From positions 992,001 through 1,056,000 of the forward strand of contig OZ257142.1 in NCBI GenBank assembly GCA_965279035.1: a stretch of DNA of 64,000 nt, read 5' to 3'. Shown here one piece after another: positions 13,638-62,619 of the stretch. Position numbers and translations under genes: made by a program. This DNA is from Bacteroidia bacterium. GTDB lineage: Bacteria > Bacteroidota > Bacteroidia > M30B66. Below the pieces are notes generated by a model. That model had not been told where the DNA came from and made no database searches. It saw only the letters and a program-made list of their open reading frames with translations. Position 1 is the first letter of the stretch. Each line of letters starts with the position of its first letter.

Positions 13638-14311
13638 TGATGAGCTCAGTTAGTCAACGTATAGTAGAAATTCGTCATTCCCTTCCAAGCGGTGTTGAGC
13701 TTTGTGCAGTTTCTAAAACAAAACCAGTTGCTCTCATTGAAGAGGCATATCAGGTTGGACAACGAATTTTCGGAGAGAATAGGGTACAGGAATTAGAAGA
13801 GAAAGCCAATCTTCTTCCAAAAGATATTCAGTGGCATTTGATAGGGCATCTGCAAACAAATAAGGTAAAATATATTGCTTCATTCGTTTCGATGATTCAT
13901 GCTGTTGATGATGAAAAATTATTAGAAATCATTGATAAGGAAGCCCGAAAACACAACAGAATAATTGACTGTTTGATTCAGATTCATATTGCAGAAGAGG
14001 AAAGTAAATTTGGATTTTCAGAAGAAGAAGCTTTACAATTCTTTCAATCAGGAAAATGGAAATCTCTAAAAAACGTTCAGCTGAGAGGACTCATGGGAAT
14101 GGCAACATTTACTGAAGATTCGGAAAAAATCAGAATGGAATTTAGAGGACTTCATCACTTTTTTCTGAAAATGAAATCAGAATGTATGTCACAAGAATCT
14201 TCCTTTGATCAACTTTCCATTGGAATGAGTGGAGATTATAAAATTGCTATCGATGAAGGCAGCACACTCATTCGAGTAGGTAGTTCTATTTTTGGTGATC
14301 GTTCTTATTGA
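13637..14311 (+). CDS. yggS: PLP homeostasis protein (YggS/PLPBP)
   Basis: AVSKTKP, FGENRVQE, WHLIGHLQTNK, GMSGDY, RVGSSIFG. Confidence 0.95.
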   Translation: MMSSVSQRIVEIRHSLPSGVELCAVSKTKPVALIEEAYQVGQRIFGENRVQELEEKANLLPKDIQWHLIGHLQTNKVKYIASFVSMIHAVDDEKLLEIIDKEARKHNRIIDCLIQIHIAEEESKFGFSEEEALQFFQSGKWKSLKNVQLRGLMGMATFTEDSEKIRMEFRGLHHFFLKMKSECMSQESSFDQLSIGMSGDYKIAIDEGSTLIRVGSSIFGDRSY

Positions 14312-15276
14312 GCGATTATCAATTTTGATGAGTGAACAATTCCTTCCTGTTGAAATGTGAGGAAATAAATTCCTGAGTTCAATTCATTGGGAATTCCCAC
14401 CATTCGATTTGATGTAGTTCCTTTTAGAACCACTTTCCCTGTAAAATCTATAAGTGAAAAATTCACTTCGTTTCTGATTCCTTTAATGTAAAACACTCCC
14501 GAACTTGGATTGGGGAAAATTGAAATACTTGAAGATGATAGATTTTCAAATCCAAGGGAGTTTGGAGTATTGTGATTGCCAGCTGTAACCGATGCTCCCG
14601 TTGGAAAATTAGCACTTATTTCTAATGGATCAAAAGTCGTATTCGTTATTAAATCTCCATTATACCAAGCTGGTTTTGAAAAAGGAGTTGTATTTCCATA
14701 GAAACGAACAGCTGCATCAGGAGTTCCTGCCGATTGAGTTAATGTAACACCTCCATAGATAAGTGCTGTTAAATCTCCATTTGTCCAACCTACTGCATCT
14801 TGTAAAACGGCTCCTGAAGGAAGATCTAAAGTGCCATCGTTGTTGGTATCATAATCAGCATTATGTACCATGGGTATGGGGCTATATATAACTGTAAATG
14901 TTGTATTCCCGTTTTCTAAGATACCACCAGGAATACCAAATGAAAGAGTGTCTTTGACTGTTGTTTCTGCGGGTAAGTTTGGATAACCAAGAGTAGTTCC
15001 GATGAAAATCAATCCGTTTGAACCGATTGTAATATTGTTCAATGGAATCACTAAATCGCAATTTCCTGCTGAAGCTGAATCTCCCTCGAATACACACACA
15101 TAAATTTTGTTTAAAGTGGTACCTGGAGTTCCTTTTAATTCAATAAACTCGTAAGGATCGTCTGATCCTGCTGGGTTGACAACAATTTCATTCAAGAGCA
15201 ATTGTGCATTTGAATGAGAATGAATAAATAGAAAACAACTTGTAATAAGAACAGAAATCGAATGGTATAGTTTCAT
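14305..15276 (-). CDS. Secreted lamin-tail-like domain protein with T9SS type A CTD
   Basis: LLNEI...EFIELKG; C-terminus IFPNPSSG...GIYFL...KLIIAQ. Confidence 0.7.
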   Translation of the reverse strand: MKLYHSISVLITSCFLFIHSHSNAQLLLNEIVVNPAGSDDPYEFIELKGTPGTTLNKIYVCVFEGDSASAGNCDLVIPLNNITIGSNGLIFIGTTLGYPNLPAETTVKDTLSFGIPGGILENGNTTFTVIYSPIPMVHNADYDTNNDGTLDLPSGAVLQDAVGWTNGDLTALIYGGVTLTQSAGTPDAAVRFYGNTTPFSKPAWYNGDLITNTTFDPLEISANFPTGASVTAGNHNTPNSLGFENLSSSSISIFPNPSSGVFYIKGIRNEVNFSLIDFTGKVVLKGTTSNRMVGIPNELNSGIYFLTFQQEGIVHSSKLIIAQ

Positions 15277-18200
15277 CAGCGGGTCAATACAATTTTACCA
15301 GTAGCAGTTTCGAAATAATCTTTTTTCAAATAATAATTGAGCACATAGTAATACACACCCTGCGGTAAATCAACATTGGCCTGTTTACCATCCCATTTAA
15401 AATCAAGGTTATTGGATTGATATAATTCTTCACCCCAGCGATTGTAAATCATCACATTCCCTTTTAAAACAGTTTCAGTGTGGTAGCATTGAAACCATTC
15501 ATTTAATCCATCACCATTAGGAGTAAATGCAGTTGGAATATACATCGTTTGAGGAATTATCTCTTTCAACAAGAAATGAGCAGTGAGTGTATCTGTTGTA
15601 TCTACAATGCAGCCATTTACACTCATGCTTGAATCATCAGAAAGCACTGTATTTTCTAATGTCCAATGACTGAATAAATAGATATCTGTTGGATTTGCAT
15701 CCGTAGTAACTGGTGTTCCAGGAAAGTACTCGAATGTTGTTGGATAATTTTGAATCCAAGTTCCATTGATGTTTACAGTTCCTGCGCCGGGAGGATCAAC
15801 TAGTACTGTAAGAAACCAGGTTTGAAGAGGTTTGAAATGAATAATGATTGTATCAGTTGAATCTGAGATAAATGAAGCATCAATTGTAGCGGAATCGGGT
15901 GTGAACGGATGATATGAAGATTCATACCAAACAAATTCATAGTTTGTTGAAGGTGTTGCCGATAAACTCAGTGAAAAACCTTCATTGTATGTTGTTGTGT
16001 ATGGATAGGATGCTGGGCTAATACCATTGATTGATATAGTTCCTGATCCAGGAGGTTCAACAATATAAGTGATGGTATTTATTTCAATCACTCTAAAATG
16101 AGCAACAATACTATCTGAAGCTTGAATCATGAAACTATTGAGCGCATCGGTACTATCTGTAGTGAGATCACTGTGAAATATTTCCCAATACCAGAATTCA
16201 TAGTTCGTTGCTGGAGTAGCTTCTATCTCACCTTCGACACCTCCAAAGTATGTTCCTGACCAAGGATAGCTAGCAATATTCAATTCATTAAATCGAATTG
16301 TTCCACTCGCAGCTGGTGAAACATTAAAAGCAAGATTGAATGGACCATTTACATCGTAGCAATTAATTACTCCTTGATTAGCAATGTATTGACAACGATT
16401 AGAAATCTGATTTCTCATATACGACAAATGCGATTGCCATTCAGTCATCGTTCCGCCCCATCGAGTAATTTGATTGGACATTTCAGGAGTTATATGATTG
16501 ACTATACTATCGAAATGAGCTAGAGCAAAATCACAATTTAAGTATGTACTTATCATTTCAGCATACCGATTTACAAAACGTTGTTTGAAAGCCGGATTTG
16601 CCATGAGTCTGTTATAGATATCCAAATGACCTTCATCGGGTCCCGCATTTTGGAAATTATTATCTAATGCACATGGATCTGTTGTATAATCTGTAGAAGG
16701 CCAACCTGAATAATTTTGACCAAGATCAAAGGTATTATCCATGTCCCATAAAGCGTATTTCCATTTTACGTTGGGAGTGCCTCTACCTCGCCACCACATG
16801 GTATTCCAATTAATCCAATCGGAATTTACAGCCCATGAATTCAAAATGATATAATCAATAACACTCGCTAAATCGAGTCTTGAAGCAACACTATTATAAT
16901 TCGCATTGATGGAAAGATCATTACTCATGATATATCCATAGAGATCATTCCAATCGGTATCGCTACCATAACGAACGGTTAATCCTCCCCAAAATGAAAG
17001 CAAGTCTAAATCTTCTTCCTTTTGATTCCAGTAATAGTTGGTGTAATCAGGATCATTTACTTTTTCACGAATCTCATAAAGTCCCCAATATTGACCATTG
17101 ATGTAAAGAGCACAATGATCGTTAGTACGAAGGTCAACATTCATGTGAGCCGTTTGAGCTAAGGATTGAATGTATGCATCACGAAGATGACAACCACCGC
17201 CACTTCCCCAAGTAAAAGGATAATTATCAGAAGCAGCTGCTTTAAGAATTAATCGTTGAAACTGAGCACGTGGTTTTGTTGGGAAAACTTGATAATCTAT
17301 TTTATCGTCATACCCTAGTTGATCACGAACGATAAAGTCAACCCCTTTTTGAGGATATGCCCAGCTATCATTTCCATGGCCATTCACATCACCATACGAT
17401 TCGAATTGTTGAGTTCCAGAACTAGTGAAATACTCAATGGTTGAGTTAATTTCTTGAACTCCACTATTGAATAGATTCGTGTATTGATCGGATGATAATG
17501 AAACAATTGGAATAGTATGACTAACGCCAATAAGGTAAGTATTGGTTTCAGTAAATCCTGCTAAAATGCTTGCAGAGGCAGGGAAAGCTCTCGCCCTAAG
17601 TGCAGTTGAAGTGCTAATAGCAATAGGAGCAGAATAACTTGCAGATGTGGTTGTTGGTTCAGAACCATCCGTTGTATAGCGAATGGTAACACCAGCATCG
17701 GGAGAGCTAAGACTAACATTGATAGCTCCTGGGTAAATTCCAGCAGCTAAGCTCATGGTTGGAGTTGTTGTGTAGGATGTATATCCTGTTCCGTTTGCAG
17801 TTCCTGGTGTTGGTGTTGCAAAAATCCCCCAGGTTGCTGAACCATTGGGAATTCTTCCGCGTGAATTATTCGCTCTTGCTGGAGTAGTTATTACTTGATC
17901 TGTTATTGCTCCACCAGCATCAGCAAAAATGATTGTTTCATTATTCGTTTGCGTGAGTTTGAAATTCGTGTGAAAACTCAATCCAGTTGAAATGTCTCTC
18001 CCAGAAGCAAAAAATATCATGTACCCATTCGAAGCGATCGTTGTACCCGCTGGAATTTGCCACTTTGTAGGATTCGCAACATTATCACTGAGGAAATTAC
18101 CTCCAATGTTTATCGCAGCACCTGTTGGATTATATAATTCAATCCAATCTTCATAATTTCCATAATCATCTGCTATCGTCGAAATATTAGAACAAGAAAA

Positions 18201-18284
18201 CTCGTTAATCACCACTTGCCCAAACGATGAATAGGTCACTAGAATAAGCAATATGATGAAATATGAACGTAGTAGTTTTAACAT
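15276..18284 (-). CDS. Secreted CotH-family kinase with lamin-tail domain, Ig-like repeats and T9SS type B CTD
   Basis: VINEF...DWIELYN; YTTDGSEPT; LYINGQYWGLYEIRE, SDW, WDMD; CTD PTAFTPNGDGLN...YNRWG...WDG...GVYYY. Confidence 0.85.
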   Translation of the reverse strand: MLKLLRSYFIILLILVTYSSFGQVVINEFSCSNISTIADDYGNYEDWIELYNPTGAAINIGGNFLSDNVANPTKWQIPAGTTIASNGYMIFFASGRDISTGLSFHTNFKLTQTNNETIIFADAGGAITDQVITTPARANNSRGRIPNGSATWGIFATPTPGTANGTGYTSYTTTPTMSLAAGIYPGAINVSLSSPDAGVTIRYTTDGSEPTTTSASYSAPIAISTSTALRARAFPASASILAGFTETNTYLIGVSHTIPIVSLSSDQYTNLFNSGVQEINSTIEYFTSSGTQQFESYGDVNGHGNDSWAYPQKGVDFIVRDQLGYDDKIDYQVFPTKPRAQFQRLILKAAASDNYPFTWGSGGGCHLRDAYIQSLAQTAHMNVDLRTNDHCALYINGQYWGLYEIREKVNDPDYTNYYWNQKEEDLDLLSFWGGLTVRYGSDTDWNDLYGYIMSNDLSINANYNSVASRLDLASVIDYIILNSWAVNSDWINWNTMWWRGRGTPNVKWKYALWDMDNTFDLGQNYSGWPSTDYTTDPCALDNNFQNAGPDEGHLDIYNRLMANPAFKQRFVNRYAEMISTYLNCDFALAHFDSIVNHITPEMSNQITRWGGTMTEWQSHLSYMRNQISNRCQYIANQGVINCYDVNGPFNLAFNVSPAASGTIRFNELNIASYPWSGTYFGGVEGEIEATPATNYEFWYWEIFHSDLTTDSTDALNSFMIQASDSIVAHFRVIEINTITYIVEPPGSGTISINGISPASYPYTTTYNEGFSLSLSATPSTNYEFVWYESSYHPFTPDSATIDASFISDSTDTIIIHFKPLQTWFLTVLVDPPGAGTVNINGTWIQNYPTTFEYFPGTPVTTDANPTDIYLFSHWTLENTVLSDDSSMSVNGCIVDTTDTLTAHFLLKEIIPQTMYIPTAFTPNGDGLNEWFQCYHTETVLKGNVMIYNRWGEELYQSNNLDFKWDGKQANVDLPQGVYYYVLNYYLKKDYFETATGKIVLTR

Positions 18285-18386: not shown

Positions 18387-20720
18387 TCAAAATTCAAAAC
18401 GATAACTTAGTGTTGGAATAATACCAGCTTGAGTCACAACGTCAAGTTTACGAGTGTCTTCATTATAAAAACGGCTATACTCGTTCAAATGATTCGTTAC
18501 ATTTTGAATGTCGATTTTCCAGACGCGTGTTGTCTTTTTCTTATTGATCGTATAGCTTATTCCTAAATCGGTTCTCCAATAGGCTGATGCTTGTAATTGA
18601 TTGACGTTGTAATTATCATAAATGCCGTATCCTTTCTCAATAGACTCTTGCAATAAAATCGGAGTATATCTTCTTCCCCCAGCGAAAACGGCTCTTAAAT
18701 TTATACTCAATGTATTTCGTTCCCCAATTTTAAATTCTTTTCCTGCGAGTAAACTGCTTGCATAATTTCCATTAAAGGAGGTGTTTCTAAGAACCCCATC
18801 AGAGCCACGGTATTTCGAATCATACAAGGAACCAGTTGCCATAAAATAATAACGTTTCGAGAAGTACTTTTCTAAGGTCATCTCAATTCCATAATTCCTA
18901 CCTGTTCCAGTATTCTTTGCAGAAATCGTTGTAAATCCTTGTGACATATTAATCATTGATAAACCATTGGATTGTGTTTTATCAACCGGAATTGAATATA
19001 AATCTTGGTAATACGTTTCCATTTTCAGATGCAATTGTTTCGTGAGCATTGTTTCATACCCTAAAACATAATGTCTTGATTTGGAATAACCTAAGTTTCT
19101 ATTTGGTGTTATAAAGCTTCCATCAGCTTGTTGAACTTGTCCATAATAAACTGGTAAATCTTCTAAGCGACTATGAAGTCCAATACCGGCACTTAAAACC
19201 TGAGTTCCTTTAAAATTCCATTTTACACCTAAACGAGGTTCGAATGCTTGTGAGTTATTGAGTAAAAAACGAGAATAATGTATTCCTGTATTCATTGTCC
19301 ATCTTTCGTTCATTCGATATTGCCAATTCGCAAAGGCCTGAATTAGCCCCGAATTTCCTGATTTATCTAAATTGATTGTTGGTTTATTTAATTCATAATC
19401 ATACGAAATTGATTTCATAGAATAATTCAATTTACTTGCAATGAAACCTGCTTTAATGCTGTGTTTTCGATCAAATTTATGATTGAATGTAAATGAAGCT
19501 CGAGCAGCAGCATTTAAAAAATGTTCGTTGGTTTCTTCATGAATAAAATGAGCAAGTGAATCATAACGATTACTCACATAATCATTACTATTTCCAGTGA
19601 ATGCAACAACTGTTTTAATCCAAGTTTTATCGTTAAATAAATAGCTGTGTGTAATTCCAGCAACACCTAATTTCGTTTTATAATTACTTCGGTATTGAAT
19701 GTTTTTCCCTATATATTCTTCATGAATTTGGCTAATTCCACCGATGCCAAACAGAGTAAAGTTTCCTAATTTTTTAGTGGGTAGATTAACATTATATGAG
19801 AGATCTTGAAACACTGGAATCGCATCACCCACTATTTTAACTCCTAATTTTTGGAGAAGCGAAAGCGAAGAATAACGGTAATTAATCAAGTATGAACCAG
19901 CATATCCTTTCTTAAAAGGACCTTCTATTGCTGCATCAGTTCCAATCACTCCAATTTGTAAGGCGGTTTCTCGTTTTTCGTTATTGCCTTTCCGAAGTCG
20001 AATGTCAAAAACACCGGATGCTGCATTGCCGTAATCGGCAGGGAAAGCTCCGGTTAAGAAATCAGAATTCGCCATCATATTAATACTTAACATGCTGATT
20101 GCTCCACCTGCAGATCCTTGATTGGAGAAGTGGTTTGGATTGGGAATTTCAATTCCTTCCATGCGCCATAACAATCCGCGTGGTGAATTTCCGCGTACAA
20201 CTATTTCATTCGAACCATCCGAATTGCTTGTTACTCCGGCAAAAGATAAAGCCATTCGCCCCGGATCATTTAATGCACCTGCATAGCGTTTGGTTTCTTC
20301 TACCGAAAACTGACGTGCGCTAACAGAAGTCAATTCATTAATCGCTTCTGATTTATTGTTCCCAACAGCACTTATTTCAACTGCTTTTATCTCGGTTATT
20401 CGTTCAACTAATTTCACATTTAAAACTACTTCCTTCCCTGCACCAACAAGCACATTGGGAAGAATTAAATCATTGTAACCAATCAAGGAAATTTTAAGAT
20501 CAACTCTACCAATTGGAACCTGATTTAGTCGAAAATGACCATCGATATCGCTTGTTGTTCCTATTAAAGGGGATGATTTCAATACAATGACACTCGCGCC
20601 GGGTATGATACTTTCGGATGTTTGGTCGATGATTGTCCCTCGAATTGTTTGGAAAAGGTTTTGGGAAATTGCCTGAAATGATTGCATAGCAAAGCATATC
20701 AGAAGAAAATTTCTGAGCAT
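18387..20720 (-). CDS. TonB-dependent receptor with N-terminal carboxypeptidase-regulatory-like domain
   Basis: Plug motif NEIVVRGNSP...EGIEIPNPNHF; barrel region GRNYGIEMTLEKYF; ends YRFEF. Confidence 0.88.
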   Translation of the reverse strand: MLRNFLLICFAMQSFQAISQNLFQTIRGTIIDQTSESIIPGASVIVLKSSPLIGTTSDIDGHFRLNQVPIGRVDLKISLIGYNDLILPNVLVGAGKEVVLNVKLVERITEIKAVEISAVGNNKSEAINELTSVSARQFSVEETKRYAGALNDPGRMALSFAGVTSNSDGSNEIVVRGNSPRGLLWRMEGIEIPNPNHFSNQGSAGGAISMLSINMMANSDFLTGAFPADYGNAASGVFDIRLRKGNNEKRETALQIGVIGTDAAIEGPFKKGYAGSYLINYRYSSLSLLQKLGVKIVGDAIPVFQDLSYNVNLPTKKLGNFTLFGIGGISQIHEEYIGKNIQYRSNYKTKLGVAGITHSYLFNDKTWIKTVVAFTGNSNDYVSNRYDSLAHFIHEETNEHFLNAAARASFTFNHKFDRKHSIKAGFIASKLNYSMKSISYDYELNKPTINLDKSGNSGLIQAFANWQYRMNERWTMNTGIHYSRFLLNNSQAFEPRLGVKWNFKGTQVLSAGIGLHSRLEDLPVYYGQVQQADGSFITPNRNLGYSKSRHYVLGYETMLTKQLHLKMETYYQDLYSIPVDKTQSNGLSMINMSQGFTTISAKNTGTGRNYGIEMTLEKYFSKRYYFMATGSLYDSKYRGSDGVLRNTSFNGNYASSLLAGKEFKIGERNTLSINLRAVFAGGRRYTPILLQESIEKGYGIYDNYNVNQLQASAYWRTDLGISYTINKKKTTRVWKIDIQNVTNHLNEYSRFYNEDTRKLDVVTQAGIIPTLSYRFEF

Positions 20721-22161: not shown

Positions 22162-22183
22162 GATTTTTGTTTTTCAAAAGCAA

Positions 22184-22209
22184 GACAATTCAACCCGAAA
22201 TCACCCCTA
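22184..22209 (-). promoter_or_regulatory. Candidate ECF-sigma promoter, copy 2
   Basis: TAGGGGT-N14-TTGTC ending 22 nt before the ATG at 22161; same motif and spacing at 26217-26242. Confidence 0.65.
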
Positions 22210-22273: not shown

Positions 22274-22300
22274 AAAAAAGCCGTCATGTAGACAGCTCTT
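22274..22300 (-). terminator. Intrinsic terminator after pirin
   Basis: Minus strand GAGCTGTC-TACAT-GACGGCTT followed by T-run. Confidence 0.7.
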
Positions 22301-22319
22301 TAAAGAATAATATCAGGAA

Positions 22320-23275: not shown

Positions 23276-25204
23276 TCAGAAGAAACGAATTCCAGCTTGC
23301 CAACCTATCCAACCGGAAAAGGAAGCATGGGTATTGGAATCACTGAAGATTTCATCTTTACCAATGGAAGGACGATTTTCAAAAATAGCATTCGAATCGA
23401 TGCGGTATACATTGAAAGTTGGACCAGCAAAGAAGCAAATTCGTTTTGCTGGACGATAGCCTAAATAGATTCCAGAACGACCCCATAAATCGGGAGTAAT
23501 TCCTTGTTTGAGCGATTCATTAAAGACAAAGGAACCAACCACATCCAATCCGAAGAAAAACTTTTTTCCTGGGCGAAATTCAGTTCCTGCTCCATAGCCA
23601 AATGTTACGAATGATGGATTGTTGGGGCGAAACATCCCGGCACTAATGACATTGTAAAAACGATGTGTCCCAGTTCGAAGTGTATAAAGCACCTGATTGA
23701 CATCGGATGTTGAGATTTCGAACTGATGCATTCCTTGTCGAACTATGCTGATTAATCCAACAGAAATGCCTTTGATTGTATCGCATACGTTGAATAATCC
23801 AAGTTGACTGCCACCTACTTTACCTGCAATATTGAACAAACTTGAAACTTGCGAACCTCGAATCCAACGTGCGAAATTGGCCAATCCAGCAACCTGAACA
23901 GTAAACGTTGTATCGACCGTAACATTAACACCGCCACTAAGTTGAGCTCCATGCATACTGCCCGTGCTCAGATTTAAGAAACCAGAAACTTGAGTACCAT
24001 AAAAATCTCCTGTTGCTAAATTGGTAAAGCCTGCCAATTGAGCACCTCGTCCCGTTTTGCCGCATAAATTCATAAAGCCAGCAGCTTGAACGCCCGAAAG
24101 TTCTTTCCCAGAAATATTTAAAAAACCAGCAGTTTGAACTCCTCGAACACGGTTTCGAGCCATATTGAAAAATCCAGCAGCCTGAACTCCCTTTAAAGAA
24201 TCTAAAGAAAGATTGTAAAAACCAGCCGTTTGAATACCTCGAATAGCACCGATATTATTATTCATAAATCCAGCAATCTGAATTCCATCAACTTCACCGC
24301 CAGTAATATTCATGAATCCTCCGATTTGCAATCCATGCACATGTTTTCGGGTGATGTTGAAAATTCCTCCAAGTTCAACTCCACTCAAAGCCATCGAATA
24401 ACCTCCCAAAGCATTGAACGAAACATGATTTTCGACCATGCCCGAATAATTCCGGTTACTTCCTAATGTTGGAAGAAAAGAAATCTGAAACGTACGTTGC
24501 TCGTACAAAGGATGATTTTCGGACTGAAATTGTTGCTCTTCCGAAACGACTGCTCTGAATAAGCCATTATCCGCCATTTCGATTGGAATGCTTGCCGGAA
24601 GTGGATTTAATTCTGAAAGAACTGGTAATGGATGAAGTCGAATTTCGGTGGATTTGACTTCTTCGGGGCGAAGTGTAAGTATGGTATCGCGGTAATTTTT
24701 TCTACTAATTAAAACCCGAGAAAAATCGGATTCTGAATTTAAAGGAAGCGTGTAGTTTCCTTGTTTATCGCTTAATGTTGTGTTGAATTCTCCGACTTCG
24801 GTGACCGATGCAGAAGCAATTAATTTCCCTGTTGCTGCATCACGAATTTGTCCGCTTAAAACGTAGGTCTCTTTTAATTTATTTACTCGCTCCTTGGTTT
24901 TTGGGATGATGATTACATGACTTCCTCCAGATCGAAAAATATATCCAGCGCCTAGTGTTTGTTCTAAAGCAAACCGAACCGATTGATTCTGGACTAGAAC
25001 TGAAGTAGTTTTTTTTTCATCAATACCGGAAGCATTATAGCTTAATAAAAAATTGCCTTTTCGCGAAATAGCTTGTAATGCATCGGAAGTAGAAACACGA
25101 TCGAGCTTAAGCGTTATTTTACGAGATAAAGGATCCTCCTGAGCCTGTATATACAGAGGAAAGAGTAATAAAAACGCAACAAGTAGTTTAGCAACCCGGG
25201 CCAT
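23276..25204 (-). CDS. STN + carboxypeptidase-regulatory-like + about 13 GxQxAGFxN repeats + probable small C-terminal barrel
   Basis: N-terminal ITLKLDRVSTSDAL...LSYN...VRFALEQTLG (STN-like); LSGQIRDAATG...ASV; repeats; ends GIRFF. Confidence 0.75.
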   Translation of the reverse strand: MARVAKLLVAFLLLFPLYIQAQEDPLSRKITLKLDRVSTSDALQAISRKGNFLLSYNASGIDEKKTTSVLVQNQSVRFALEQTLGAGYIFRSGGSHVIIIPKTKERVNKLKETYVLSGQIRDAATGKLIASASVTEVGEFNTTLSDKQGNYTLPLNSESDFSRVLISRKNYRDTILTLRPEEVKSTEIRLHPLPVLSELNPLPASIPIEMADNGLFRAVVSEEQQFQSENHPLYEQRTFQISFLPTLGSNRNYSGMVENHVSFNALGGYSMALSGVELGGIFNITRKHVHGLQIGGFMNITGGEVDGIQIAGFMNNNIGAIRGIQTAGFYNLSLDSLKGVQAAGFFNMARNRVRGVQTAGFLNISGKELSGVQAAGFMNLCGKTGRGAQLAGFTNLATGDFYGTQVSGFLNLSTGSMHGAQLSGGVNVTVDTTFTVQVAGLANFARWIRGSQVSSLFNIAGKVGGSQLGLFNVCDTIKGISVGLISIVRQGMHQFEISTSDVNQVLYTLRTGTHRFYNVISAGMFRPNNPSFVTFGYGAGTEFRPGKKFFFGLDVVGSFVFNESLKQGITPDLWGRSGIYLGYRPAKRICFFAGPTFNVYRIDSNAIFENRPSIGKDEIFSDSNTHASFSGWIGWQAGIRFF

Positions 25205-26207
25205 CTAAAAGATACGATTTCGGTTCTTTCACTACAGTAATATTGAATGTTTCGGAAATGATCAGCAGGATGGAAGACAAATCCTGATTCTTGAATGTTG
25301 CAGTTAGTCTGCAATTGGAAGTTTCTTCGTTTTTAAATTGAATGGTTGTACCGAATACTTTTTCTAAAACACTGCAAACAGCTTTCAAATCACTGTTTTC
25401 AAATACCAATGTTTTATCAAACCCAAAGCGGATACTTTCAAGATTTGTTGAATTGGTATGAATGGATTTTCCTTCACCCGAAAAATGTGCTTCTTGTCCG
25501 GGTAATAAAATAACCGCTAAGGAATCACTCGAAGCCTGCTCATGAACACCATCATAAACGAGCACTTTTCCACTGCTCACTTTGATAGAAACATCCTCTT
25601 TTTTATTCGAATTGATGCTGAATGATGTTCCTAAAACACGAACATGTGCATCACCCGCTTGAATCGAAAATGGATTTTTCACATCACGAACAACATCAAA
25701 AAATGCTTCTCCTTTTAAGGTTGTGTTGCGATTGTTTTTGCCAAAGTTTTCGGTGTACGAAATTTCAGAATTGGGTTTTAAAATAACTAAGGTGCTATCA
25801 GGTAGTTTGATTTCTTTTTGAGTATTTCCTGATGCAATGCGAATGACTTCTTCGTTCGAAGAAAAATAATAAAGAATGGAACCAATGCCGATGAGTAAAG
25901 CAAGTCCTGCAGCAATTCTCCAAATCAAATAATTTTTTGCTGGGTTTATTGGAACTACAGTCGCTTCGGTTTTTCCTTGCTCTTGAATTTGAATTTTGAC
26001 TTTTTGAAATGCTTTTATTGAATCAAAACGGGGAGCAGAATCGAGATTACTTGCTTCCCAAATCTTTTTATAAGCAGCTAATTCTGCTTCATTTTCATCG
26101 CTCTCGGCAGCCCAAGTTTCCATCTCACGCATTTCTGCATGACTTGCCTCACCTGCTAAATAGCGAGCAATGAGTGATTCAGGAAAGGATGATTCGGACG
26201 TATTCAT
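25188..26207 (-). CDS. FecR-family anti-sigma factor
   Basis: LIARYLAGE, single TM WRIAAGLALLIG, LPDSTLVIL, LKGEAFFDV, VRVLGTSF. Confidence 0.93.
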   Translation of the reverse strand: MNTSESSFPESLIARYLAGEASHAEMREMETWAAESDENEAELAAYKKIWEASNLDSAPRFDSIKAFQKVKIQIQEQGKTEATVVPINPAKNYLIWRIAAGLALLIGIGSILYYFSSNEEVIRIASGNTQKEIKLPDSTLVILKPNSEISYTENFGKNNRNTTLKGEAFFDVVRDVKNPFSIQAGDAHVRVLGTSFSINSNKKEDVSIKVSSGKVLVYDGVHEQASSDSLAVILLPGQEAHFSGEGKSIHTNSTNLESIRFGFDKTLVFENSDLKAVCSVLEKVFGTTIQFKNEETSNCRLTATFKNQDLSSILLIISETFNITVVKEPKSYLLDGPGC

Positions 26208-26216
26208 TTAGTATAT

Positions 26217-26242
26217 GACAAGCTTAAGTTCATTTACCCCTA
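26217..26242 (-). promoter_or_regulatory. Candidate ECF-sigma promoter, copy 1, overlapping the sigma stop codon
   Basis: TAGGGGT-N14-TTGTC directly upstream of the FecR start. Confidence 0.65.
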
Positions 26243-26833
26243 TGTTGAGAAAAGAAAATTCATCCAAAAACCGTTGGGTAGTAAAAGGATAATCCAAAAT
26301 AAATAATCAGAAAGCTCAGTTCGCATAATGCGTAAAGCTTTGCCCATTTGGTTTTCGACTGTTTTGATCGATATCTCAAGATGCTCAGCAATTTCTCTGT
26401 ACGATAATTCTTCAAAGCGACTTAATCGGAAAACCTTCTTGCATTCGGGAGGAAGTTTATCCATTGCCGTTTCAATTCGAATTTTCAATTCTTTTGCTAC
26501 GAGCAGTTCATTTCCATCGTAGTTCTTTTCAGGTGCTGTGTTGTGTGTATTTTCCTGATGTTCTTTTCGCACTTTTAAATGACGAATCACATTCAAGCAA
26601 CGGTTGTGAACCGATTTATATAGATAAGGACGAATCGCAGTTTGAATTTCTAAGCCCGATCTCTGTTCCCAAAATTTTACAAATACCTCTTGAACTATTT
26701 CTTCGGCAGCTTCTTGATCTTCTAATATAGACCAAGCATAACGAGCTAAACGCTCATAGAAAAGGTGAAACAGCTTTTCAAATGCCATTTCATCTCCCGA
26801 TCGTATTTGTTGAAGAATGAGCTGCTCTTCCAT
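26240..26833 (-). CDS. ECF RNA polymerase sigma-70 factor (Bacteroidota FecI-like)
   Basis: AEEIVQEVF, YLYKSVHNRCLN, LSYREIAEHLEISIKTVENQMGKAL; adjacent to FecR. Confidence 0.95.
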   Translation of the reverse strand: MEEQLILQQIRSGDEMAFEKLFHLFYERLARYAWSILEDQEAAEEIVQEVFVKFWEQRSGLEIQTAIRPYLYKSVHNRCLNVIRHLKVRKEHQENTHNTAPEKNYDGNELLVAKELKIRIETAMDKLPPECKKVFRLSRFEELSYREIAEHLEISIKTVENQMGKALRIMRTELSDYLFWIILLLPNGFWMNFLFST

Positions 26834-26957
26834 TTATCTGCAAATTAACTGAGGAAATTCGATTCTCCTCATTCTAAATTTTTCATTTGTCGAACTTTAA
26901 GCATATTTCAATCAAGATTGTCGGCATTGTCTATATTTGCCACCCGAATCTAATTCT

Positions 26958-27554
26958 ATGAAAAGTATCAACCTCTTAATCAATGTTGTTTTAAGTGTTG
27001 CAGTCATTGTTCTGTTTGCGCTTCATTTCTCATCTCGCAAATCAGGTCAATCGAATGGATCAGGCAGCGTGAATGCTGCTCCTGGAAGTTTGAACATTGT
27101 ATATTTTAATACGGATACTTTGATGGCTCAATATCAAATGTTTGTTGATGAACAAGCGGTGATGGAGAAGAAAACCAAGGATGCGGAGAGTAATTTAGTT
27201 GCAGAACAGAAGAAATTTGAAAAAGAGGCGAATGAATTTCAACAACGCGCTCAATATTTAACCATCACCGATAAAGAAGCAAAGCAAGAAAAGCTGTATC
27301 GCGAGCAACAACGCTTAATGCAATTGGAGCAAACGCTTTCTGCCGATCTTCAAAAAGAAGAATCCGAAGTGAACAAACGCATTTTTGATACGATCGAAGC
27401 CTATTTGGTTGAATATGCGAAAGAAAGAAATTACACCTATGTGCTTTCCTATACACGTGGTGGTGGAATCTGGTTCGCAAACAAAGACTTAGATATTACT
27501 GCTGAAATTGTAAAAGAGTTGAACGAACTCTATAAAAAGAAGAAAGCCGAATAA
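26958..27554 (+). CDS. OmpH/Skp-family chaperone with N-terminal anchor; start ATG 26958
   Basis: IVYFNTDTL, long coiled coil, DITAEIVKELN; TATATTTG at 26932-26939. Confidence 0.85.
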   Translation: MKSINLLINVVLSVAVIVLFALHFSSRKSGQSNGSGSVNAAPGSLNIVYFNTDTLMAQYQMFVDEQAVMEKKTKDAESNLVAEQKKFEKEANEFQQRAQYLTITDKEAKQEKLYREQQRLMQLEQTLSADLQKEESEVNKRIFDTIEAYLVEYAKERNYTYVLSYTRGGGIWFANKDLDITAEIVKELNELYKKKKAE

Positions 27555-31274: not shown

Positions 31275-32156
31275 ATGAACACAACAAAAAAAATCCTGCT
31301 AGTTCCTATCGACTTTTCTACACAGAGTTTGATCGCTCTCAACCACGCCGAAGAAATGTCAAAAGCTTTTCAAGGAGAAATTTATCTACTGCATGTTTCT
31401 GAAGAACAAAGTCTGATATCCAGTTTGTTTTCTCGTGAAGATGAAGATAAACTTCAAAATGAGGTGTGGAGAAAAATGACCGAATTAGCTCAATTCACCG
31501 AAGCAAAGAGTAAAGTCAGAACTACACCCTTAGTTGCCAAAGGGAAAATATATGAGGAAATAGTGCGCGCAGCTGAATTGGTTGGTGCAACGTTTATCAT
31601 TATGGGTACAAATGGCTCGGATGGAATTCGTAAACGTTTTATTGGTTCGAATGCCCTTCGCGTTGTGAGAGAATCTCGTACTCCTGTAATTACAATTAAA
31701 GGACAGCCAGAATACAAAGGCATCCGTTCCATTGTATTGCCACTCGATCTTTCTAAAGAAACACGTGAAAAAGTGAATAAGGCAATCGAATTATCTCGCT
31801 TTTTTAATGCGAATATTCATGTTATTTCTGTTTTACTAACGGATTCCGAAGAAGTCGTTACGAAGCTGAAACTTCAAATGGCTCAAGTAAATAGCTTCCT
31901 TACCAAAGCAGAAGTTGAACATACAACCGAAACAATTATTGCAACTGAAAAAAGCGAGGGTCTTGTTCATGAGCTACTTAACTATGCTCAAAAAGTGAAT
32001 GGTGATTTAATAATGATCATGACTCAACAAGAAACCAACTTTACAGAAATGTTTATTGGTTCTGCTGCTCAAGAAGTAATTAGTTCCTCCGAAATTCCTG
32101 TTTGTAGTATAATTCCAACAGTAAAAAAAGATACAAGTGTCTTTGTTCCTTATTGA
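31275..32156 (+). CDS. Universal stress protein (two USP domains)
   Basis: LLVPIDFS, IIMGTNGSDG...FIGSNA; second domain IVLPLD...FIGSAA. Confidence 0.9.
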   Translation: MNTTKKILLVPIDFSTQSLIALNHAEEMSKAFQGEIYLLHVSEEQSLISSLFSREDEDKLQNEVWRKMTELAQFTEAKSKVRTTPLVAKGKIYEEIVRAAELVGATFIIMGTNGSDGIRKRFIGSNALRVVRESRTPVITIKGQPEYKGIRSIVLPLDLSKETREKVNKAIELSRFFNANIHVISVLLTDSEEVVTKLKLQMAQVNSFLTKAEVEHTTETIIATEKSEGLVHELLNYAQKVNGDLIMIMTQQETNFTEMFIGSAAQEVISSSEIPVCSIIPTVKKDTSVFVPY

Positions 32157-32177
32157 GATTGAACTTTAGTCTTTTTC

Positions 32178-32214
32178 AAATCCCTATGAATATAGCTATT
32201 TATAGGGATTTTTT
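32178..32214 (+). terminator. Intrinsic terminator
   Basis: AAATCCCTAT...ATAGGGATTT followed by T-run. Confidence 0.7.
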
Positions 32215-32282
32215 GATTTTGGGAATATGATGCGAATAGTTTAGGTTTGTAAAAAGCTATTCTTTATTAAAATTCTTTCACT

Positions 32283-33170
32283 ATGAATTCGCTCGATATA
32301 AAACGGATCCTAATTCCGACAGATTTCTCCGAAACCGCAGAACTTGCTTTGGAACATGCTGTTAAAATGGCTCGCCTGCTCGACTCTGAAATTACTTTAT
32401 TGCACGTCGTTTCCACTTTTGCTTTTCGAGTTAATTTACCCGAAGTGGATATTGATGAAGCTCAGAATACCAAATTATCTGGTGCAATTGGTTCAAAACT
32501 AAATCGAATTGCAGAAGAATTAAAAGCCAAAGAAGGAATTCGTATTACAACGATGGTTACATCAGGTCGTATACGTGAAGAAGTAGTTCGAATAGCGGAA
32601 GAAATAGATGCCGATTTAATCATTATCGGAACACATGGCGTTTCTGGTTTACGCGAATTCTTTATGGGTAGTAATGCTTTTCGTATCGTTTCTGAAGCGG
32701 GATGTCCAGTTCTATCTGTGCAAGACAGTGGTCATCCAGTTGGTTTTACGAACATCATTGTTCCAATCGATAATTCATTTCATTCTCGTGAAAAACTTGG
32801 AATATCGGTGAGATTAGCTCGTCTTTATGGAGCAACTCTCCATATCTGCGGACTTCGTTCACACGATCATTCTGATTCTGATATCAATGCAAAATTCAGA
32901 ATGAAAATGAAGCAGGTGGAAGATTTTCTGAAAGAGAAAGATGTAAAGTATACCGCAACTACCATCAATTGCAGCAACATTGCCAAAGCAACAATGGATT
33001 TTGCTGCTGAAAACAATGCGGATCTTATCGTCATCATGAACGAGCAAGAAATAAATTCAACAGGATTCTTCATGGGGCCATACGCTCAACAAGTTGTTAA
33101 TCACAGTAAAATCCCCGTGTTGAGTATTCGTCCAACTACTGGTTTGATTAATTCTGTTACGCCTTACTAA
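32283..33170 (+). CDS. Universal stress protein (two USP domains), paralog
   Basis: ILIPTDFS, IIIGTHGVSG...FMGSNA; own TTTG-N20-TAGGTTTG promoter (32218-32249). Confidence 0.9.
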   Translation: MNSLDIKRILIPTDFSETAELALEHAVKMARLLDSEITLLHVVSTFAFRVNLPEVDIDEAQNTKLSGAIGSKLNRIAEELKAKEGIRITTMVTSGRIREEVVRIAEEIDADLIIIGTHGVSGLREFFMGSNAFRIVSEAGCPVLSVQDSGHPVGFTNIIVPIDNSFHSREKLGISVRLARLYGATLHICGLRSHDHSDSDINAKFRMKMKQVEDFLKEKDVKYTATTINCSNIAKATMDFAAENNADLIVIMNEQEINSTGFFMGPYAQQVVNHSKIPVLSIRPTTGLINSVTPY

Positions 33171-43764: not shown

Positions 43765-44475
43765 TTAATGTTTTATTGTAATTCGTCCGGGTTTGCTGCT
43801 TTTTCCATTCTCACGAATTGAATAAAAATATAACCCAGCTTTCAAGTCTTCTGTTGGAATTGAAATAACACCTTCTACAGAATTTAATTGAACACTTGCT
43901 ACTTTCACCCCAAGCATATTAAATAACTCAATGCTTGCAGTTTCGTTATTTGTAGAGCGTGCAAATGAAATATTTAGTTTATCATCAACAGGATTTGGAA
44001 AAGCTTTTAAAGCAGTTTCAGAAGAAACATTTTTAATTCCTAATGGTGTTACTTCAAAAGTCACAACAACATTTGTTGAATCCGAAGTATTATTTGCATC
44101 AAAGAAAGTATACTGAATTTGAGCAGTTCCCGAATTCATATTAGGGCGAAGGTGAGCACTAAATGCAGTAGATGTAGCACCACCATCCATAGTTAAAGGA
44201 TTTGGAGTTAAGCTAACTCCTTCCACATAACACGCTAGCCAGCAAAAGAAATTGGATGATCCAGTTATTGGAGAAAGAACAGTTCTGCGAACTTTTATGT
44301 CCTTTTGTTCAGAAGAGTTGTTCGTAACGGATAATCCAAGTTCTAATTCAAATTCATCTGCAGCTCCTGTAATAGTTGTGTTTTGAGTATTTACAACAAT
44401 ACTTTGAGCATTTAGTGTATATGATGTCAGAATAAAACTCACTATGGCAAAAGAATGAAGTAGTACTTTCTTCAT
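43765..44475 (-). CDS. Small T9SS cargo protein (Ig-like domain with CWLAC motif)
   Basis: Signal peptide; FCWLAC; CTD AFPNPV...GLYFY...RITIKH. Confidence 0.8.
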   Translation of the reverse strand: MKKVLLHSFAIVSFILTSYTLNAQSIVVNTQNTTITGAADEFELELGLSVTNNSSEQKDIKVRRTVLSPITGSSNFFCWLACYVEGVSLTPNPLTMDGGATSTAFSAHLRPNMNSGTAQIQYTFFDANNTSDSTNVVVTFEVTPLGIKNVSSETALKAFPNPVDDKLNISFARSTNNETASIELFNMLGVKVASVQLNSVEGVISIPTEDLKAGLYFYSIRENGKSSKPGRITIKH

Positions 44476-44664
44476 GGGTAGTATTTTTTGGCAATTTACA
44501 AATTACTTTAATATCATAAACATGTAGATAGAATAAATGTTTTATCTGCAAGAATTCAAACTTTTGTAGCCCCTAAAATTTTTAATCATTAAAAAAAACA
44601 AACATATTTTGTAATGTAAATAAAATGATGAAATTTGTAATTCATTGAATTTTCTCAACTAGAC

Positions 44665-46131
44665 ATGAAAAAACTTTTACAAACTACCCTTGTTGCAGCA
44701 ATGACCATGCTCGCCGGGAATTCTTACAGTCAAATGGCGAATGGCTCTTTGGCTCCATCTCTTAATCTTACCGATTTGAACGGCAATACATATGATGTAG
44801 ATGCTCTTCTTGCTGCTGGTAAAACTGTATTCATTGATGTTTCTGCTACTTGGTGTGGCCCATGTTGGAACTTCCACCAAACTCATATCCTAGAAGATCT
44901 TTACAATCAATATGGTCCTGGTGGAACTAATGAAGTTCAAGTTTTTTGGATTGAAGGTGATGCTACAACTACTGTAGCTGAAATAAGTGGTTCAGGAACT
45001 AGTACTCAAGGTGACTGGACTGCAGGAACAACATTTCCAATGTGTGATGATGCTGTTGCATCTAATGCTCTTCAAATTGGATTTTTCCCAACTCTTTATA
45101 TGATTTGCCCTAGCCGTCGTGTTTGGCATATCAGCCCTTCAGAAGTTGGTGCTTACTGGCCAGTATCACAGCATATTGCTAATGCTCGTGCTTGTACTAA
45201 TCCTATTGATGCTGTAATGGATTCTTATACAGGAGAAACCTCCACTTGCGGATATGTTTCTCAGCTTAAAGTGAAATGTCAAAATAAAGGTGTTAACACG
45301 TTGACCTCAGCAACTATTACTGCTTCTATAGGTGGAAATGTTGTTGCCTCTAAAGCATGGACTGGTTCATTAGAGCAGTTTCAAGCTGTTGAAGTAAATA
45401 TTGGATCACATACATTTAATGCAAATGAAGATGTAGAATTTGCAATTACTCCAAATGGAACTGACGTTGCTCCTTCTGATAATATTGGAACTCAAACTAT
45501 TTCAATGGCTCCAGAAGTTTCTAATACAACGTTAATTGTTAAAATTACAACTGACCAATACGGTTCAGAAACTACTTGGAAACTTCGTAAAGGAAACAAT
45601 GCAGTTCTTGCTTCTGGTGGTCCTTATGCTGATCTAGCAGCAGCTGGAGAAGGTGTTCAACCTGATGTTACAGTTACTCTTCCAGCTAACGATTGCTACA
45701 AATTTGAAATGATTGATGGATACGGCGATGGTATGTGCTGTAATTATGGAAATGGTGGATATCAAGTTACTGATGATGCTGGAAACGTGTTAATTTCTGG
45801 TGATCAATATGGCGCTTCAGAAATTAAACGCATTAGTTATGGTGTAACTTCAGTTGGAAATGATCTTTCTTCCATTGCTTCTGTTAATGTTTATCCAAAT
45901 CCATCTAACGGGCTTTGTAATGTGACTATGTCTTTAACTAAAAACGAAGATGTAAGCTTCCGTGTTTACAATGTTTTAGGTTCTTTAGTTTCTTCTCGTA
46001 ATATGGGCAACCTTACTCCTGGAGATTACATTTATCAAATGGATTTATCTGGTCAAGCATCAGGTGTTTATACACTTGTCATGCAAACCAATCAAGGTGT
46101 GAAATCATACATGGTTAGCATTAACCATTGA
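44665..46131 (+). CDS. T9SS-secreted thioredoxin-fold (redoxin) protein
   Basis: SATWCGPCW, FPT cis-Pro motif, GDGMCCNYG, CTD VYPNPSN...GVYTL. Confidence 0.85.
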   Translation: MKKLLQTTLVAAMTMLAGNSYSQMANGSLAPSLNLTDLNGNTYDVDALLAAGKTVFIDVSATWCGPCWNFHQTHILEDLYNQYGPGGTNEVQVFWIEGDATTTVAEISGSGTSTQGDWTAGTTFPMCDDAVASNALQIGFFPTLYMICPSRRVWHISPSEVGAYWPVSQHIANARACTNPIDAVMDSYTGETSTCGYVSQLKVKCQNKGVNTLTSATITASIGGNVVASKAWTGSLEQFQAVEVNIGSHTFNANEDVEFAITPNGTDVAPSDNIGTQTISMAPEVSNTTLIVKITTDQYGSETTWKLRKGNNAVLASGGPYADLAAAGEGVQPDVTVTLPANDCYKFEMIDGYGDGMCCNYGNGGYQVTDDAGNVLISGDQYGASEIKRISYGVTSVGNDLSSIASVNVYPNPSNGLCNVTMSLTKNEDVSFRVYNVLGSLVSSRNMGNLTPGDYIYQMDLSGQASGVYTLVMQTNQGVKSYMVSINH

Positions 46132-46151
46132 TTCTTAAAATAACTACAGTT

Positions 46152-46179
46152 GAAAACCGGGAAGAAATTCCCGGTTTTT
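46152..46179 (+). terminator. Intrinsic terminator
   Basis: AAAACCGGGAA-GAAA-TTCCCGGTTTTT. Confidence 0.75.
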
Positions 46180-46195
46180 CTATTTTTACCCAATC

Positions 46196-46711
46196 ATGAA
46201 AAAACTACTCCTCATTTCTTTTCTTTTTCCTACAATTTTATCGGCTCAACTTCTCGATATCGTTCGACCAATTCCTTCCATTGAGGTTAAAACTATTGAT
46301 GGAAAGACATTCAATACAGCTGATTTCGAAAATGGTGGCAAACCCATTATCATTAATTTCTGGGCTACATGGTGTAAACCATGCATTGCAGAATTGACAA
46401 ACATTGATGAAGTGTATGAAGAATGGGTAAAAGAAACAGGCGTTAAAGTAATCGCCATCTCAATTGATGATTCGCGAAATGCTACAAAAGTTGCTCCTTT
46501 TGTTAGCGGTAGAGGTTGGACATACGAAGTATATCTTGATCCGAATTCAGACTTCAAACGAGCTCTCAATGTGAATAATCCTCCTCAAACTTTTCTAATA
46601 AACGGAAACAAAGAAATAGTTTGGCAACATAACGGTTACCAAGAAGGGAGTGAAATTGAGCTATATGAATTAGTGAAAAAATTAGCTGAAGGGAAGCCAT
46701 TAGCTCATTAA
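46196..46711 (+). CDS. TlpA-family disulfide reductase (periplasmic)
   Basis: Signal peptide; INFWATWCKPCIAEL. Confidence 0.92.
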   Translation: MKKLLLISFLFPTILSAQLLDIVRPIPSIEVKTIDGKTFNTADFENGGKPIIINFWATWCKPCIAELTNIDEVYEEWVKETGVKVIAISIDDSRNATKVAPFVSGRGWTYEVYLDPNSDFKRALNVNNPPQTFLINGNKEIVWQHNGYQEGSEIELYELVKKLAEGKPLAH

Positions 46712-46714
46712 ACT

Positions 46715-48349: not shown

Positions 48350-48377
48350 TATTGTTAAATTGTTTCACATGTTGACT

Positions 48378-49229: not shown

Positions 49230-49233
49230 GACC

Positions 49234-54366: not shown

Positions 54367-54399
54367 TTAGCTCTCCTTTAATCGTGTGATGAAACTTTA

Positions 54400-55473: not shown

Positions 55474-55503
55474 ATGGTTGATTTTCTGTTGATATAAATC
55501 GAA

Positions 55504-56703: not shown

Positions 56704-56733
56704 TGTACCTGTATTAATCGTTAGCGTCAGGTT

Positions 56734-57417: not shown

Positions 57418-57429
57418 TTCGAAACCTCC

Positions 57430-57966: not shown

Positions 57967-57975
57967 AACGGATTT

Positions 57976-59355: not shown

Positions 59356-59381
59356 ATCGTCTCTATGCTAAAGCGAATGAA

Positions 59382-62582: not shown

Positions 62583-62619
62583 ACTTCGTAAAAGTCCGGT
62601 TTATGAAGGAGGATGTGGA

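Follow-up and report, generated by a model that had tools for sequence, protein, structure and literature searches.

We analysed a 64,000-nucleotide stretch of a Bacteroidia bacterium genome (contig OZ257142.1, positions 992,001 to 1,056,000; hereafter the window) that carries a cell-surface signalling locus with an unusual outer-membrane protein, P0001. Coordinates are those of the whole 64-kb stretch, and sequence assignments were made with Pfam, NCBIfam and our own profile hidden Markov models (HMMs); comparison loci bear the prefix L and genomes the prefix G. Seven genes run head to tail on the minus strand, from a gene for an extracytoplasmic function (ECF) sigma factor to one for a type IX secretion substrate with CotH and CHU_C domains. 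The first three are the ECF sigma factor, FecR and STN/carboxypeptidase-regulatory-like protein that an initial annotation, made from the letters alone, had placed at the head of the locus, and curated models recover the sigma factor and FecR:

26240–26833, minus strand: ECF sigma factor, 197 amino acids, Bacteroidetes FecI-like type (TIGR02985, 180.5 bits against a cutoff of 126.4; Sigma70_r2 and Sigma70_r4_2)
25188–26207, minus strand: FecR-type anti-sigma factor, 339 amino acids (PF04773, 61 bits; FecR_C PF16344, 52 bits; both above cutoff)
23276–25204, minus strand: STN-stalk protein P0001, 642 amino acids, the start of which overlaps the end of fecR by 17 nt

As read from its translation, the FecR protein consists of an N-terminal anti-sigma part, one transmembrane segment at about residues 94–115 and periplasmic FecR and FecR_C domains. 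An ECF-type sigma factor next to an anti-sigma factor with FecR, FecR_C and a single transmembrane segment constitutes a FecI/FecR pair.

The third protein is of a different kind from the usual partner of such a pair. An AlphaFold2 model of P0001 built on 80 homologues (mean predicted local distance difference test score (pLDDT) 88.2), a check that the initial annotation had proposed, was searched with Foldseek, and the best chains were then re-aligned structurally (VIA). The model resolves the protein into a two-domain head, a beta-solenoid and a small barrel:

24887–25126, minus strand: STN (signalling) domain, residues 27–106, matching the N-terminal signalling domain of PupB (6ovk_B; Z 9.6, root-mean-square deviation (rmsd) 2.8, 79/81 residues)
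24614–24871, minus strand: SusC-type N-terminal extension (NTE; CarboxypepD_reg-like, Ig-like), residues 112–197, matching the SusC NTE (9hfj; Z 13.6, rmsd 1.6, 80/80 residues)
23741–24502, minus strand: beta-solenoid stalk, residues 235–488, about 14 two-strand rungs of 16-residue LA_2272 repeats, pLDDT above 90
23279–23737, minus strand: 8-stranded outer-membrane beta-barrel anchor, residues 490–642, last residue F, Z 12–15

The chain 6ovk_B is the PupB signalling domain taken from a complex with PupR. The SusC NTE was also matched by sequence, at E 8.4e-7 against the PDB, with a profile of the N-terminal 215 residues of 12 relatives. Above-threshold Pfam matches in homologues agree with these fold matches: STN exceeds its gathering score in three (31.3 bits in L006, 34.0 in L010 and 33.6 in L011), and the NTE models (PF13715/PF13620) reach the gathering score of 32.2 in L003, L004, L009, L010 and L011. 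The STN-like and carboxypeptidase-regulatory-like N terminus that had been read from the sequence is thereby confirmed. A short helical linker (residues 198–234) joins the NTE to the solenoid, for which about 13 repeats of the form GxQxAGFxN had been reported; we count about 13–14 in-register units (residues 259–482) with an exact 16-residue period, including 9 strict matches spaced exactly 16 residues apart (291–419). The NCBIfam model LA_2272_repeat (NF047436) scores 48.6 bits on P0001, above its cutoff of 25. Fold matches to the solenoid (residues 237–488) are weak, with left-handed beta-helix-type and other beta-helical proteins at Z of about 10 and poor rmsd, a general resemblance.

The last 153 residues form eight strands. 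Their best structural matches are 6x9z (Z 15.4) and OprF (4rlc, Z 14.6), followed by NspA, OmpW and OmpA (Z of about 12), with designed 8-strand barrels among the hits. The assignment as an 8-strand barrel, with eight antiparallel strands and a C-terminal aromatic residue, comes from fold only: the region matched neither PF13505 nor PF13568, a profile search against the PDB gave 0 matches at E ≤ 10, hhalign against the neighbouring OMP_b-brl_2 family gave a probability of 0.4, and phmmer with the whole of P0001 against the PDB reached a best E of 0.29. Plug (PF07715) and TonB_dep_Rec (PF00593) matched neither P0001 nor any of the 11 homologues that were scanned, and the model shows neither a plug nor a 22-stranded barrel, in agreement with the initial description of a C-terminal region of about 150 residues ending in F. 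When stalk proteins were aligned (MAFFT) with three canonical transducers of genome G001, the TonB boxes of the latter fell on the Pro-rich, poorly conserved linker of the former; a moderately conserved segment, predicted to be helical, lies about 20 residues past that linker.

In even-stranded barrels both termini lie in the periplasm, and in transporters STN and NTE domains are periplasmic. By these rules the solenoid, NTE and STN of P0001 would be periplasmic, and at the usual beta-solenoid rise of 4.8 Å per rung the 14 rungs would make a stalk of about 65–70 Å. The predicted outward loops of the barrel are short (about 4, 2, 9 and 23 residues), so the protein probably exposes almost nothing at the cell surface and, its surface loops being minimal, is an improbable binder of extracellular ligands in its own right. 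The anatomy of the new receptor class that had been proposed, a solenoid plus a small barrel, therefore stands; the word receptor is doubtful, because the loops are short and the barrel topology would keep stalk and head in the periplasm, and P0001 looks more like an anchor with a stalk.

The architecture recurs across the phylum. A homologue search (7999 candidates scored, E ≤ 1e-3) returned at least 1182 homologues of P0001, which span 354–725 amino acids among the 120 best listed; where these carry a name, it is 'STN and carboxypeptidase regulatory-like domain-containing protein' or hypothetical. The STN and CarbopepD_reg signature is shared by 14 of the 30 large clusters that lie nearest in the ESM Atlas, all of them from Bacteroidota. 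We compared 11 loci from species genomes and 80 from metagenomes, classing their open reading frames (ORFs) with HMMs made from our own alignments. A protein with STN, NTE and repeats is encoded in 39 of them, equivalent to 33 non-redundant groups at 95% identity once six near-identical loci had been merged. In all 28 groups whose upstream sequence reaches 700 nt or more, the gene immediately upstream, in the same orientation, is fecR, its frame often overlapping the next gene. Of the 26 groups with 1.7 kb or more upstream, 24 have an ECF sigma factor, the exceptions being L008 and L023. In one locus (L022:7998-10052) the stalk gene is represented by two adjacent ORFs, of 310 amino acids (STN, NTE and repeats) and 373 amino acids (repeats and barrel), which points to a frameshift, an error in the sequencing or a gene that is naturally split.

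An evenly drawn sample of 301 Bacteroidota species genomes was searched with an N-terminal profile (E ≤ 1e-25). Among the 17 genomes that matched, 13 had stalk-sized frames (about 4% of species) and 4 had frames of 863–1133 amino acids, which are canonical transducers. Inspection of five of the 13 stalk genomes revealed the order sigma–FecR–stalk in each. Three genomes searched in full contain one full-length stalk protein apiece, next to FecR; G001 also holds four STN-bearing frames of TonB-dependent transporter (TBDT) length (878–1026 amino acids), which means that in this genome the stalk type coexists with ordinary STN-bearing transducers. Taken together, gene order strongly supports a link between the stalk protein and FecR.

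In its parts the module resembles FecA/FecR/FecI, FoxA/FoxR/FoxI and PupB/PupR/PupI, with which it shares an ECF sigma factor, a FecR protein with FecR_C and a FecR-adjacent outer-membrane STN protein. Unlike FecA, FoxA and PupB, the stalk protein lacks a plug, a 22-strand barrel and an evident TonB box, and consists instead of a stalk mounted on a barrel of 8 strands; the transporter that the switch would control, by contrast with FecA-type systems, is without STN. STN-bearing SusC-type transducers come from the same phylum, go with the sigma subfamily TIGR02985 and have an STN-then-NTE head that aligns with that of the stalk proteins in three G001 proteins, whereas the stalk protein has neither a SusC body nor a SusD partner, and a helical linker and solenoid replace the TonB box and plug. 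A passage of one paper states that in SusCs the NTE precedes the STN domain (PMC7782687); in the stalk proteins and in the three canonical G001 transducers (L095–L097) the order is STN then NTE. Functionally the module is FecIR-type signalling, and its stalk protein lacks two of the features by which a transducer is defined, namely a plug and a 22-strand barrel. Our preferred reading, to which we assign a probability of roughly 60%, is a FecR-type switch with a dedicated, non-transporting periplasmic partner in place of the TonB-dependent transducer.

While reading upstream regions we noticed a motif of invariant spacing, TARGGGT-N15-TGTCW, that occurs twice in the window and, together with a terminator-like site, divides the genes downstream of the sigma factor into two units:

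26216–26242, minus strand: putative ECF-type promoter 1, TARGGGT-N15-TGTCW, ending 9 nt before the fecR start and overlapping the sigma stop codon
22320–23198, minus strand: pirin (bicupin; Pirin 91 bits, Pirin_C 87 bits)
22275–22301, minus strand: terminator-like hairpin followed by a T-run, 3' of pirin (consensus scan)
22183–22209, minus strand: putative ECF-type promoter 2, TARGGGT-N15-TGTCW, ending 22 nt before P0121
20749–22161, minus strand: stalk paralogue P0121, 470 amino acids (BLASTP against P0001, E 2e-60 over solenoid and barrel)
18387–20720, minus strand: STN-less TBDT, 777 amino acids, with CarboxypepD_reg/NTE, Plug and barrel, 28 nt after P0121

The likely start of pirin, from its start codon, is 23198 (the longest ORF reaches 23312), and a 292-residue orthologue occupies the same place in the related loci L003, L004 and L005; the gene is probably on one transcript with fecR and the stalk gene. 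Terminator-like sites number 4 in the region against 6.4 expected, and the hairpin after pirin backs this operon map by its position only. The window thus reads as a sigma gene, a motif-headed fecR–stalk–pirin unit, a terminator and a motif-headed paralogue–TBDT unit. Scanning the region for the sigma-70 consensus gave 23 sites against 26.3 in shuffles, a consensus that does not apply to Bacteroidota. The sigma-A-type element TAnnTTTG precedes the sigma genes exactly in L002, L003 and L009 and approximately in the window, and we draw no claim from it.

On both strands of the 64-kb window there are exactly two matches to the motif against 0.08 expected, a count reached by 1 of 100 shuffles; one lies before fecR and the other before P0121 and the TBDT. 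A slightly relaxed form gave 35 matches in the loci compared, each in the same orientation as the gene that follows it: 34 in stalk loci, 1 in the module fragment L046 and none in about 450 kb of non-module loci, many of which are near-duplicates from gut metagenomes. The genes that follow are FecR in 10 cases (11 with L004, in which it is hidden by an over-long ORF), the stalk paralogue in 8 (7 besides the window), the TBDT in 5, the sigma factor in 5, DUF2807 proteins in 4 and others in 2. Across the 4.4 Mb of G001 we found 6 matches, 3 of them inside its 6-kb module, against 1 for a reversed-pattern control, and each of five further stalk genomes has a match at its own module. We infer that the motif is a promoter read by the module's sigma factor.

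Beyond the modules, motif copies precede, once or twice each, a second DUF2807 gene with DUF6588, a small barrel with MsrB, an exported flavin amine oxidase, an STN-less NTE-bearing TBDT and a DUF4097 lipoprotein. Those in G001 (L012:969-3122, with DUF2807, a 103-residue ORF and DUF6588; L013:215-1382, with a small barrel and MsrB (SelR)) may mark distant regulon members. The recurrence of DUF2807 and DUF4097 proteins as motif-preceded targets recalls the Toastrack envelope-stress modules (LiaF/LiaG and PspC partners). Toastrack unifies the DUF2807 and DUF4097 Pfam models and is known from Lia and Psp envelope-stress operons, according to a passage of the preprint that describes it (bioRxiv 10.1101/2020.09.24.301986). 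Those systems have two-component or Psp regulators and come from other phyla, whereas here the switch is a FecR-type ECF system and the stress link is one of association only.

The two proteins of the second unit are a head-less stalk and a transporter. P0121 consists of a signal peptide, about 90 low-confidence residues, a solenoid and an 8-strand barrel, with no STN or NTE (AlphaFold2 pLDDT 82.8; LA_2272 repeat 25.5 bits). In the TBDT the NTE begins at residue 25, right after the signal peptide; searches of NCBIfam and the PDB gave no clue to its substrate. Module-linked TBDTs are mutual full-length orthologues (42–87% identity among five genome loci); our own TBDT HMM scores full-length copies at 774 bits or more and one copy truncated at the end of its contig at 405, whereas no other TBDT in the loci exceeds 104. 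This TBDT is found in 12 of the 33 groups overall and in 9 of the 17 loci flanked by 5 kb or more on each side. Among the 17 well-flanked loci, 8 have the paralogue, 7 have DUF2807 and 13 have at least one of TBDT, paralogue and DUF2807; the paralogue follows more motif sites than the TBDT does, and both it and DUF2807 occur in modules without a TBDT. The shared promoter motif and the membership of an orthologous subclade linked to the module make the TBDT a likely co-regulated output in the clade of the window, though not a partner that every such module needs.

Under the preferred reading, the 8-stranded barrel would anchor P0001 in the outer membrane, and the rigid beta-solenoid would hang into the periplasm with the NTE and STN head at its tip. 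By analogy with FoxA/FoxR and PupB/PupR, the STN head would bind the C-terminal domain of FecR and shield FecR from periplasmic proteases, keeping the sigma factor inactive; loss of this contact would lead to FecR degradation and release of the sigma factor. The freed sigma factor would then read the motif at the head of the fecR–stalk–pirin and paralogue–TBDT units, and its copy before the first of these would provide negative feedback. The analogy draws on work in Pseudomonas, a passage of which reports that, in the absence of signal, the signalling domain of FoxA is bound to the C-domain of FoxR and guards it against proteolysis, and that overproduction of the signalling domain blocks signalling (PMC11637429). 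How that domain reaches FoxR across the periplasm is, by the authors' own statement in the same passage, unclear (PMC11637429).

Several observations weigh against this reading. The Pfam score of P0001 itself for STN falls below threshold (17.8 bits against 28.4), as does that for CarboxypepD_reg (24.5 against 32.3). The periplasmic orientation of the stalk follows general topology rules for outer-membrane barrels, and the protection model is drawn from Pseudomonas transducers that have a transporter body and a TonB box. Regulation by the motif has its own difficulties: G002 and G003 have 4 and 2 matches against 4 and 3 for reversed-pattern controls, so that only placement is informative there; the motif was not found in L009 or L011; only a variant of it is present in L002/L105; and in L003–L005 the element before fecR has CGGTC as its −10. 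The basis for calling it the promoter of the module's sigma factor is confined to position, conservation and resemblance to ECF −35 and −10 elements.

The locus could instead encode a split transducer, which we think unlikely. The STN-less TBDT, named in the initial annotation as a possible partner, would bind an extracellular ligand, and a TonB-dependent change would be relayed to the stalk, whose STN domain would release FecR; the relay could pass through the NTE domains of both proteins, through TonB or through the stalk paralogue as an adaptor, so that the fused sensing and signalling of FecA would be divided between two proteins. The transporter does sit in a motif-driven unit, with the motif directly before the TBDT in five loci and before a paralogue-then-TBDT pair in the window, L003, L005, L046 and L049. 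The module TBDTs form an orthologous subclade, and that of the window is 45–46% identical to those of L006, L007 and L010, whose stalk proteins are only 30–36% identical to P0001. In the phylum sample, the TBDT family occurs in 69 of 301 genomes, namely in 8 of the 13 stalk genomes against 61 of the 288 others (Fisher p 0.0025), and all five matches of at least 1000 bits lie in stalk genomes, four of them beside the stalk gene; because the profile came from module TBDTs, relatedness inflates these figures. Where the stalk locus lacked the TBDT, an orthologue with a motif or paralogue upstream turned up elsewhere in the genome (L099, L100 and L105). In the L004 genome a motif–paralogue–TBDT unit lies on another contig, in that of L008 a TBDT with a motif 50 nt upstream is found away from the stalk locus, and on the L002 contig pirin, a variant motif, the paralogue and the TBDT follow 9.5 kb downstream. 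In G086, a motif copy away from the module stands before a further TBDT that has an NTE and no STN. A TBDT family member without the motif is present in the L009 genome, and none was found in that of L011 at 1e-100. On the other side stand the loci themselves, with a TBDT in only 9 of the 17 that are well flanked, which leaves it a likely co-regulated output and not a universal partner; the 5 of 13 sampled stalk genomes with no TBDT family member at E ≤ 1e-150, in which the modules have the paralogue and/or DUF2807 or nothing further; G305, which has no member at 1e-100; and the lack of a clear TonB box after the NTE of the stalk proteins. Being an output, moreover, does not make the TBDT an input.

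Still less probable, in our view, is that the stalk protein is a structural envelope protein and a mere target of the switch, its head binding peptidoglycan-associated or secretin-like partners while FecR senses alone or through another STN-bearing TBDT. STN domains also occur in secretins, and P0001 has a weak match to the N0 domain of PilQ (4ar0; profile E 0.47, Foldseek E 0.01), although its best fold match is the PupB domain in complex with PupR. The existence of co-regulated, head-less stalk paralogues indicates that stalk and barrel have a function of their own, and canonical STN-bearing TBDTs do coexist with the stalk protein in G001. Against this, the stalk gene adjoins fecR in all 33 cases (28 groups and five sampled genomes), often with overlapping frames, as FecR is arranged with a cognate transducer, and each of the three genomes searched in full has its one stalk protein beside FecR. 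We also considered whether P0001 is a truncated, frameshifted or mis-assembled transducer gene, given that its N-terminal 200 residues resemble those of STN-bearing TBDTs. This is refuted by an intact 642-residue ORF with a complete 8-strand barrel and terminal F, by the at least 1182 homologues and the same architecture in 33 non-redundant loci, and by the gene that follows, which is pirin, with no Plug or barrel remnant in between.

Given a FecR-type switch with a non-transporting partner, the input is somewhat more likely to be a periplasmic or envelope-state cue than a signal relayed by the TBDT, because many modules have no such TBDT. The targets, which include Toastrack proteins, head-less stalks, small barrels, pirin and MsrB, also tilt us towards envelope state. 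Even in SusC the function of the NTE is described as unknown, one suggestion being specificity for TonB paralogues (a passage of PMC7782687). A more specific proposal, which we advance tentatively and think more apt to be wrong than right, is that the stalk serves as a ruler or tether of the envelope: a rigid rod, fixed in length and hanging from the outer membrane into the periplasm, would hold the FecR C-terminal domain with no ligand and no TonB. The sigma factor would be released when outer-membrane integrity, barrel assembly or inter-membrane spacing fails, and head-less stalk paralogues, Toastrack proteins, small barrels and the TBDT would remodel the envelope in response. Damage-related enzymes would join them, pirin here and MsrB and the exported amine oxidase at motif sites in other genomes. 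Distance-dependent envelope sensing has been described for RcsF and Lpp of E. coli, and a ruler of this kind would be its FecR-based counterpart.

By definition, the sensor in cell-surface signalling is also a transporter. In this module a signalling head stands naturally apart from any transporter, on a stalk of its own, a conserved design found in 13 of 301 sampled Bacteroidota species. It would offer a natural system in which to study the STN–FecR interaction apart from transport and perhaps apart from TonB, and the predicted promoter and regulon make the switch open to reporter tests. The stalk is a possible answer to the problem, raised in a passage of PMC11637429, of how an STN domain reaches across the periplasm. 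Should the input be envelope state, the module would represent a new class of envelope-stress sensor in a phylum in which such systems are poorly known. The literature search found no paper that describes an STN-stalk/FecR/ECF module, supplements lying outside that search. A passage of the ECF reclassification paper notes that experiments had addressed no member of ECF240, a FecI-like group of Bacteroidetes (PMC7826278).

The building blocks of the stalk protein are found elsewhere in other combinations. The 16-residue repeat places P0001 with the LA_2272 surface repeat family (NF047436) and VC2662, families named from Leptospira and Vibrio proteins that have no STN or NTE head; the literature search found no functional study of either. 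Gut metagenome contigs (L056–L078 and others, for example L056:7836-8984) encode LA_2272-repeat proteins of 382 amino acids without STN, which our own barrel HMM does not recognize. Unlike the module, these lie in a conserved context right after genes for an AMP-binding enzyme and a GDP-mannose dehydratase/epimerase. A small 8-stranded barrel with an attached periplasmic module is also the plan of OmpA and OprF (fold Z 12–15), in which the order is reversed with respect to P0001, whose periplasmic part is N-terminal and whose barrel has no sequence-level match to OMP_b-brl models.

Other genes accompany the module in particular loci. In a sub-clade (L026, L029, L031 and L032; for example L026:9978-10688) the stalk gene is followed by an OMP_b-brl_2 barrel of TDE1717-like type, in L048 (9914-12890) by a Plug-bearing TBDT of 705 amino acids with DUF4249, and in L018 (10203-11500) by an Mpo1-like gene with MbnP. 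In the window, as in L002–L005, an OmpH/Skp-like chaperone gene (26937–27554, plus strand) stands back to back with the sigma gene, which may be mere synteny of close relatives. Directly downstream of the window's TBDT lies the gene for one of several type IX secretion substrates, a CotH-kinase-domain protein of 1002 amino acids with LTD, chitobiase-C and Flg_new_2 domains. These substrates, which have CHU_C or Por_Secre_tail sorting domains, are encoded at 15276–18284 (minus strand), 14305–15276 (minus strand), 1001–3532 (plus strand) and 43765–46131. Elsewhere in the window we noted two tandem double-Usp genes (31275–33170, plus strand), thioredoxin/AhpC-like genes with DUF6029, Omp28 and OMP_b-brl_2 (44665–49863, plus strand), and an Alternative complex III cluster (ActD, NrfD-like, Fe-S and multihaem subunits) beside cytochrome c oxidase (52525–63882, minus strand).

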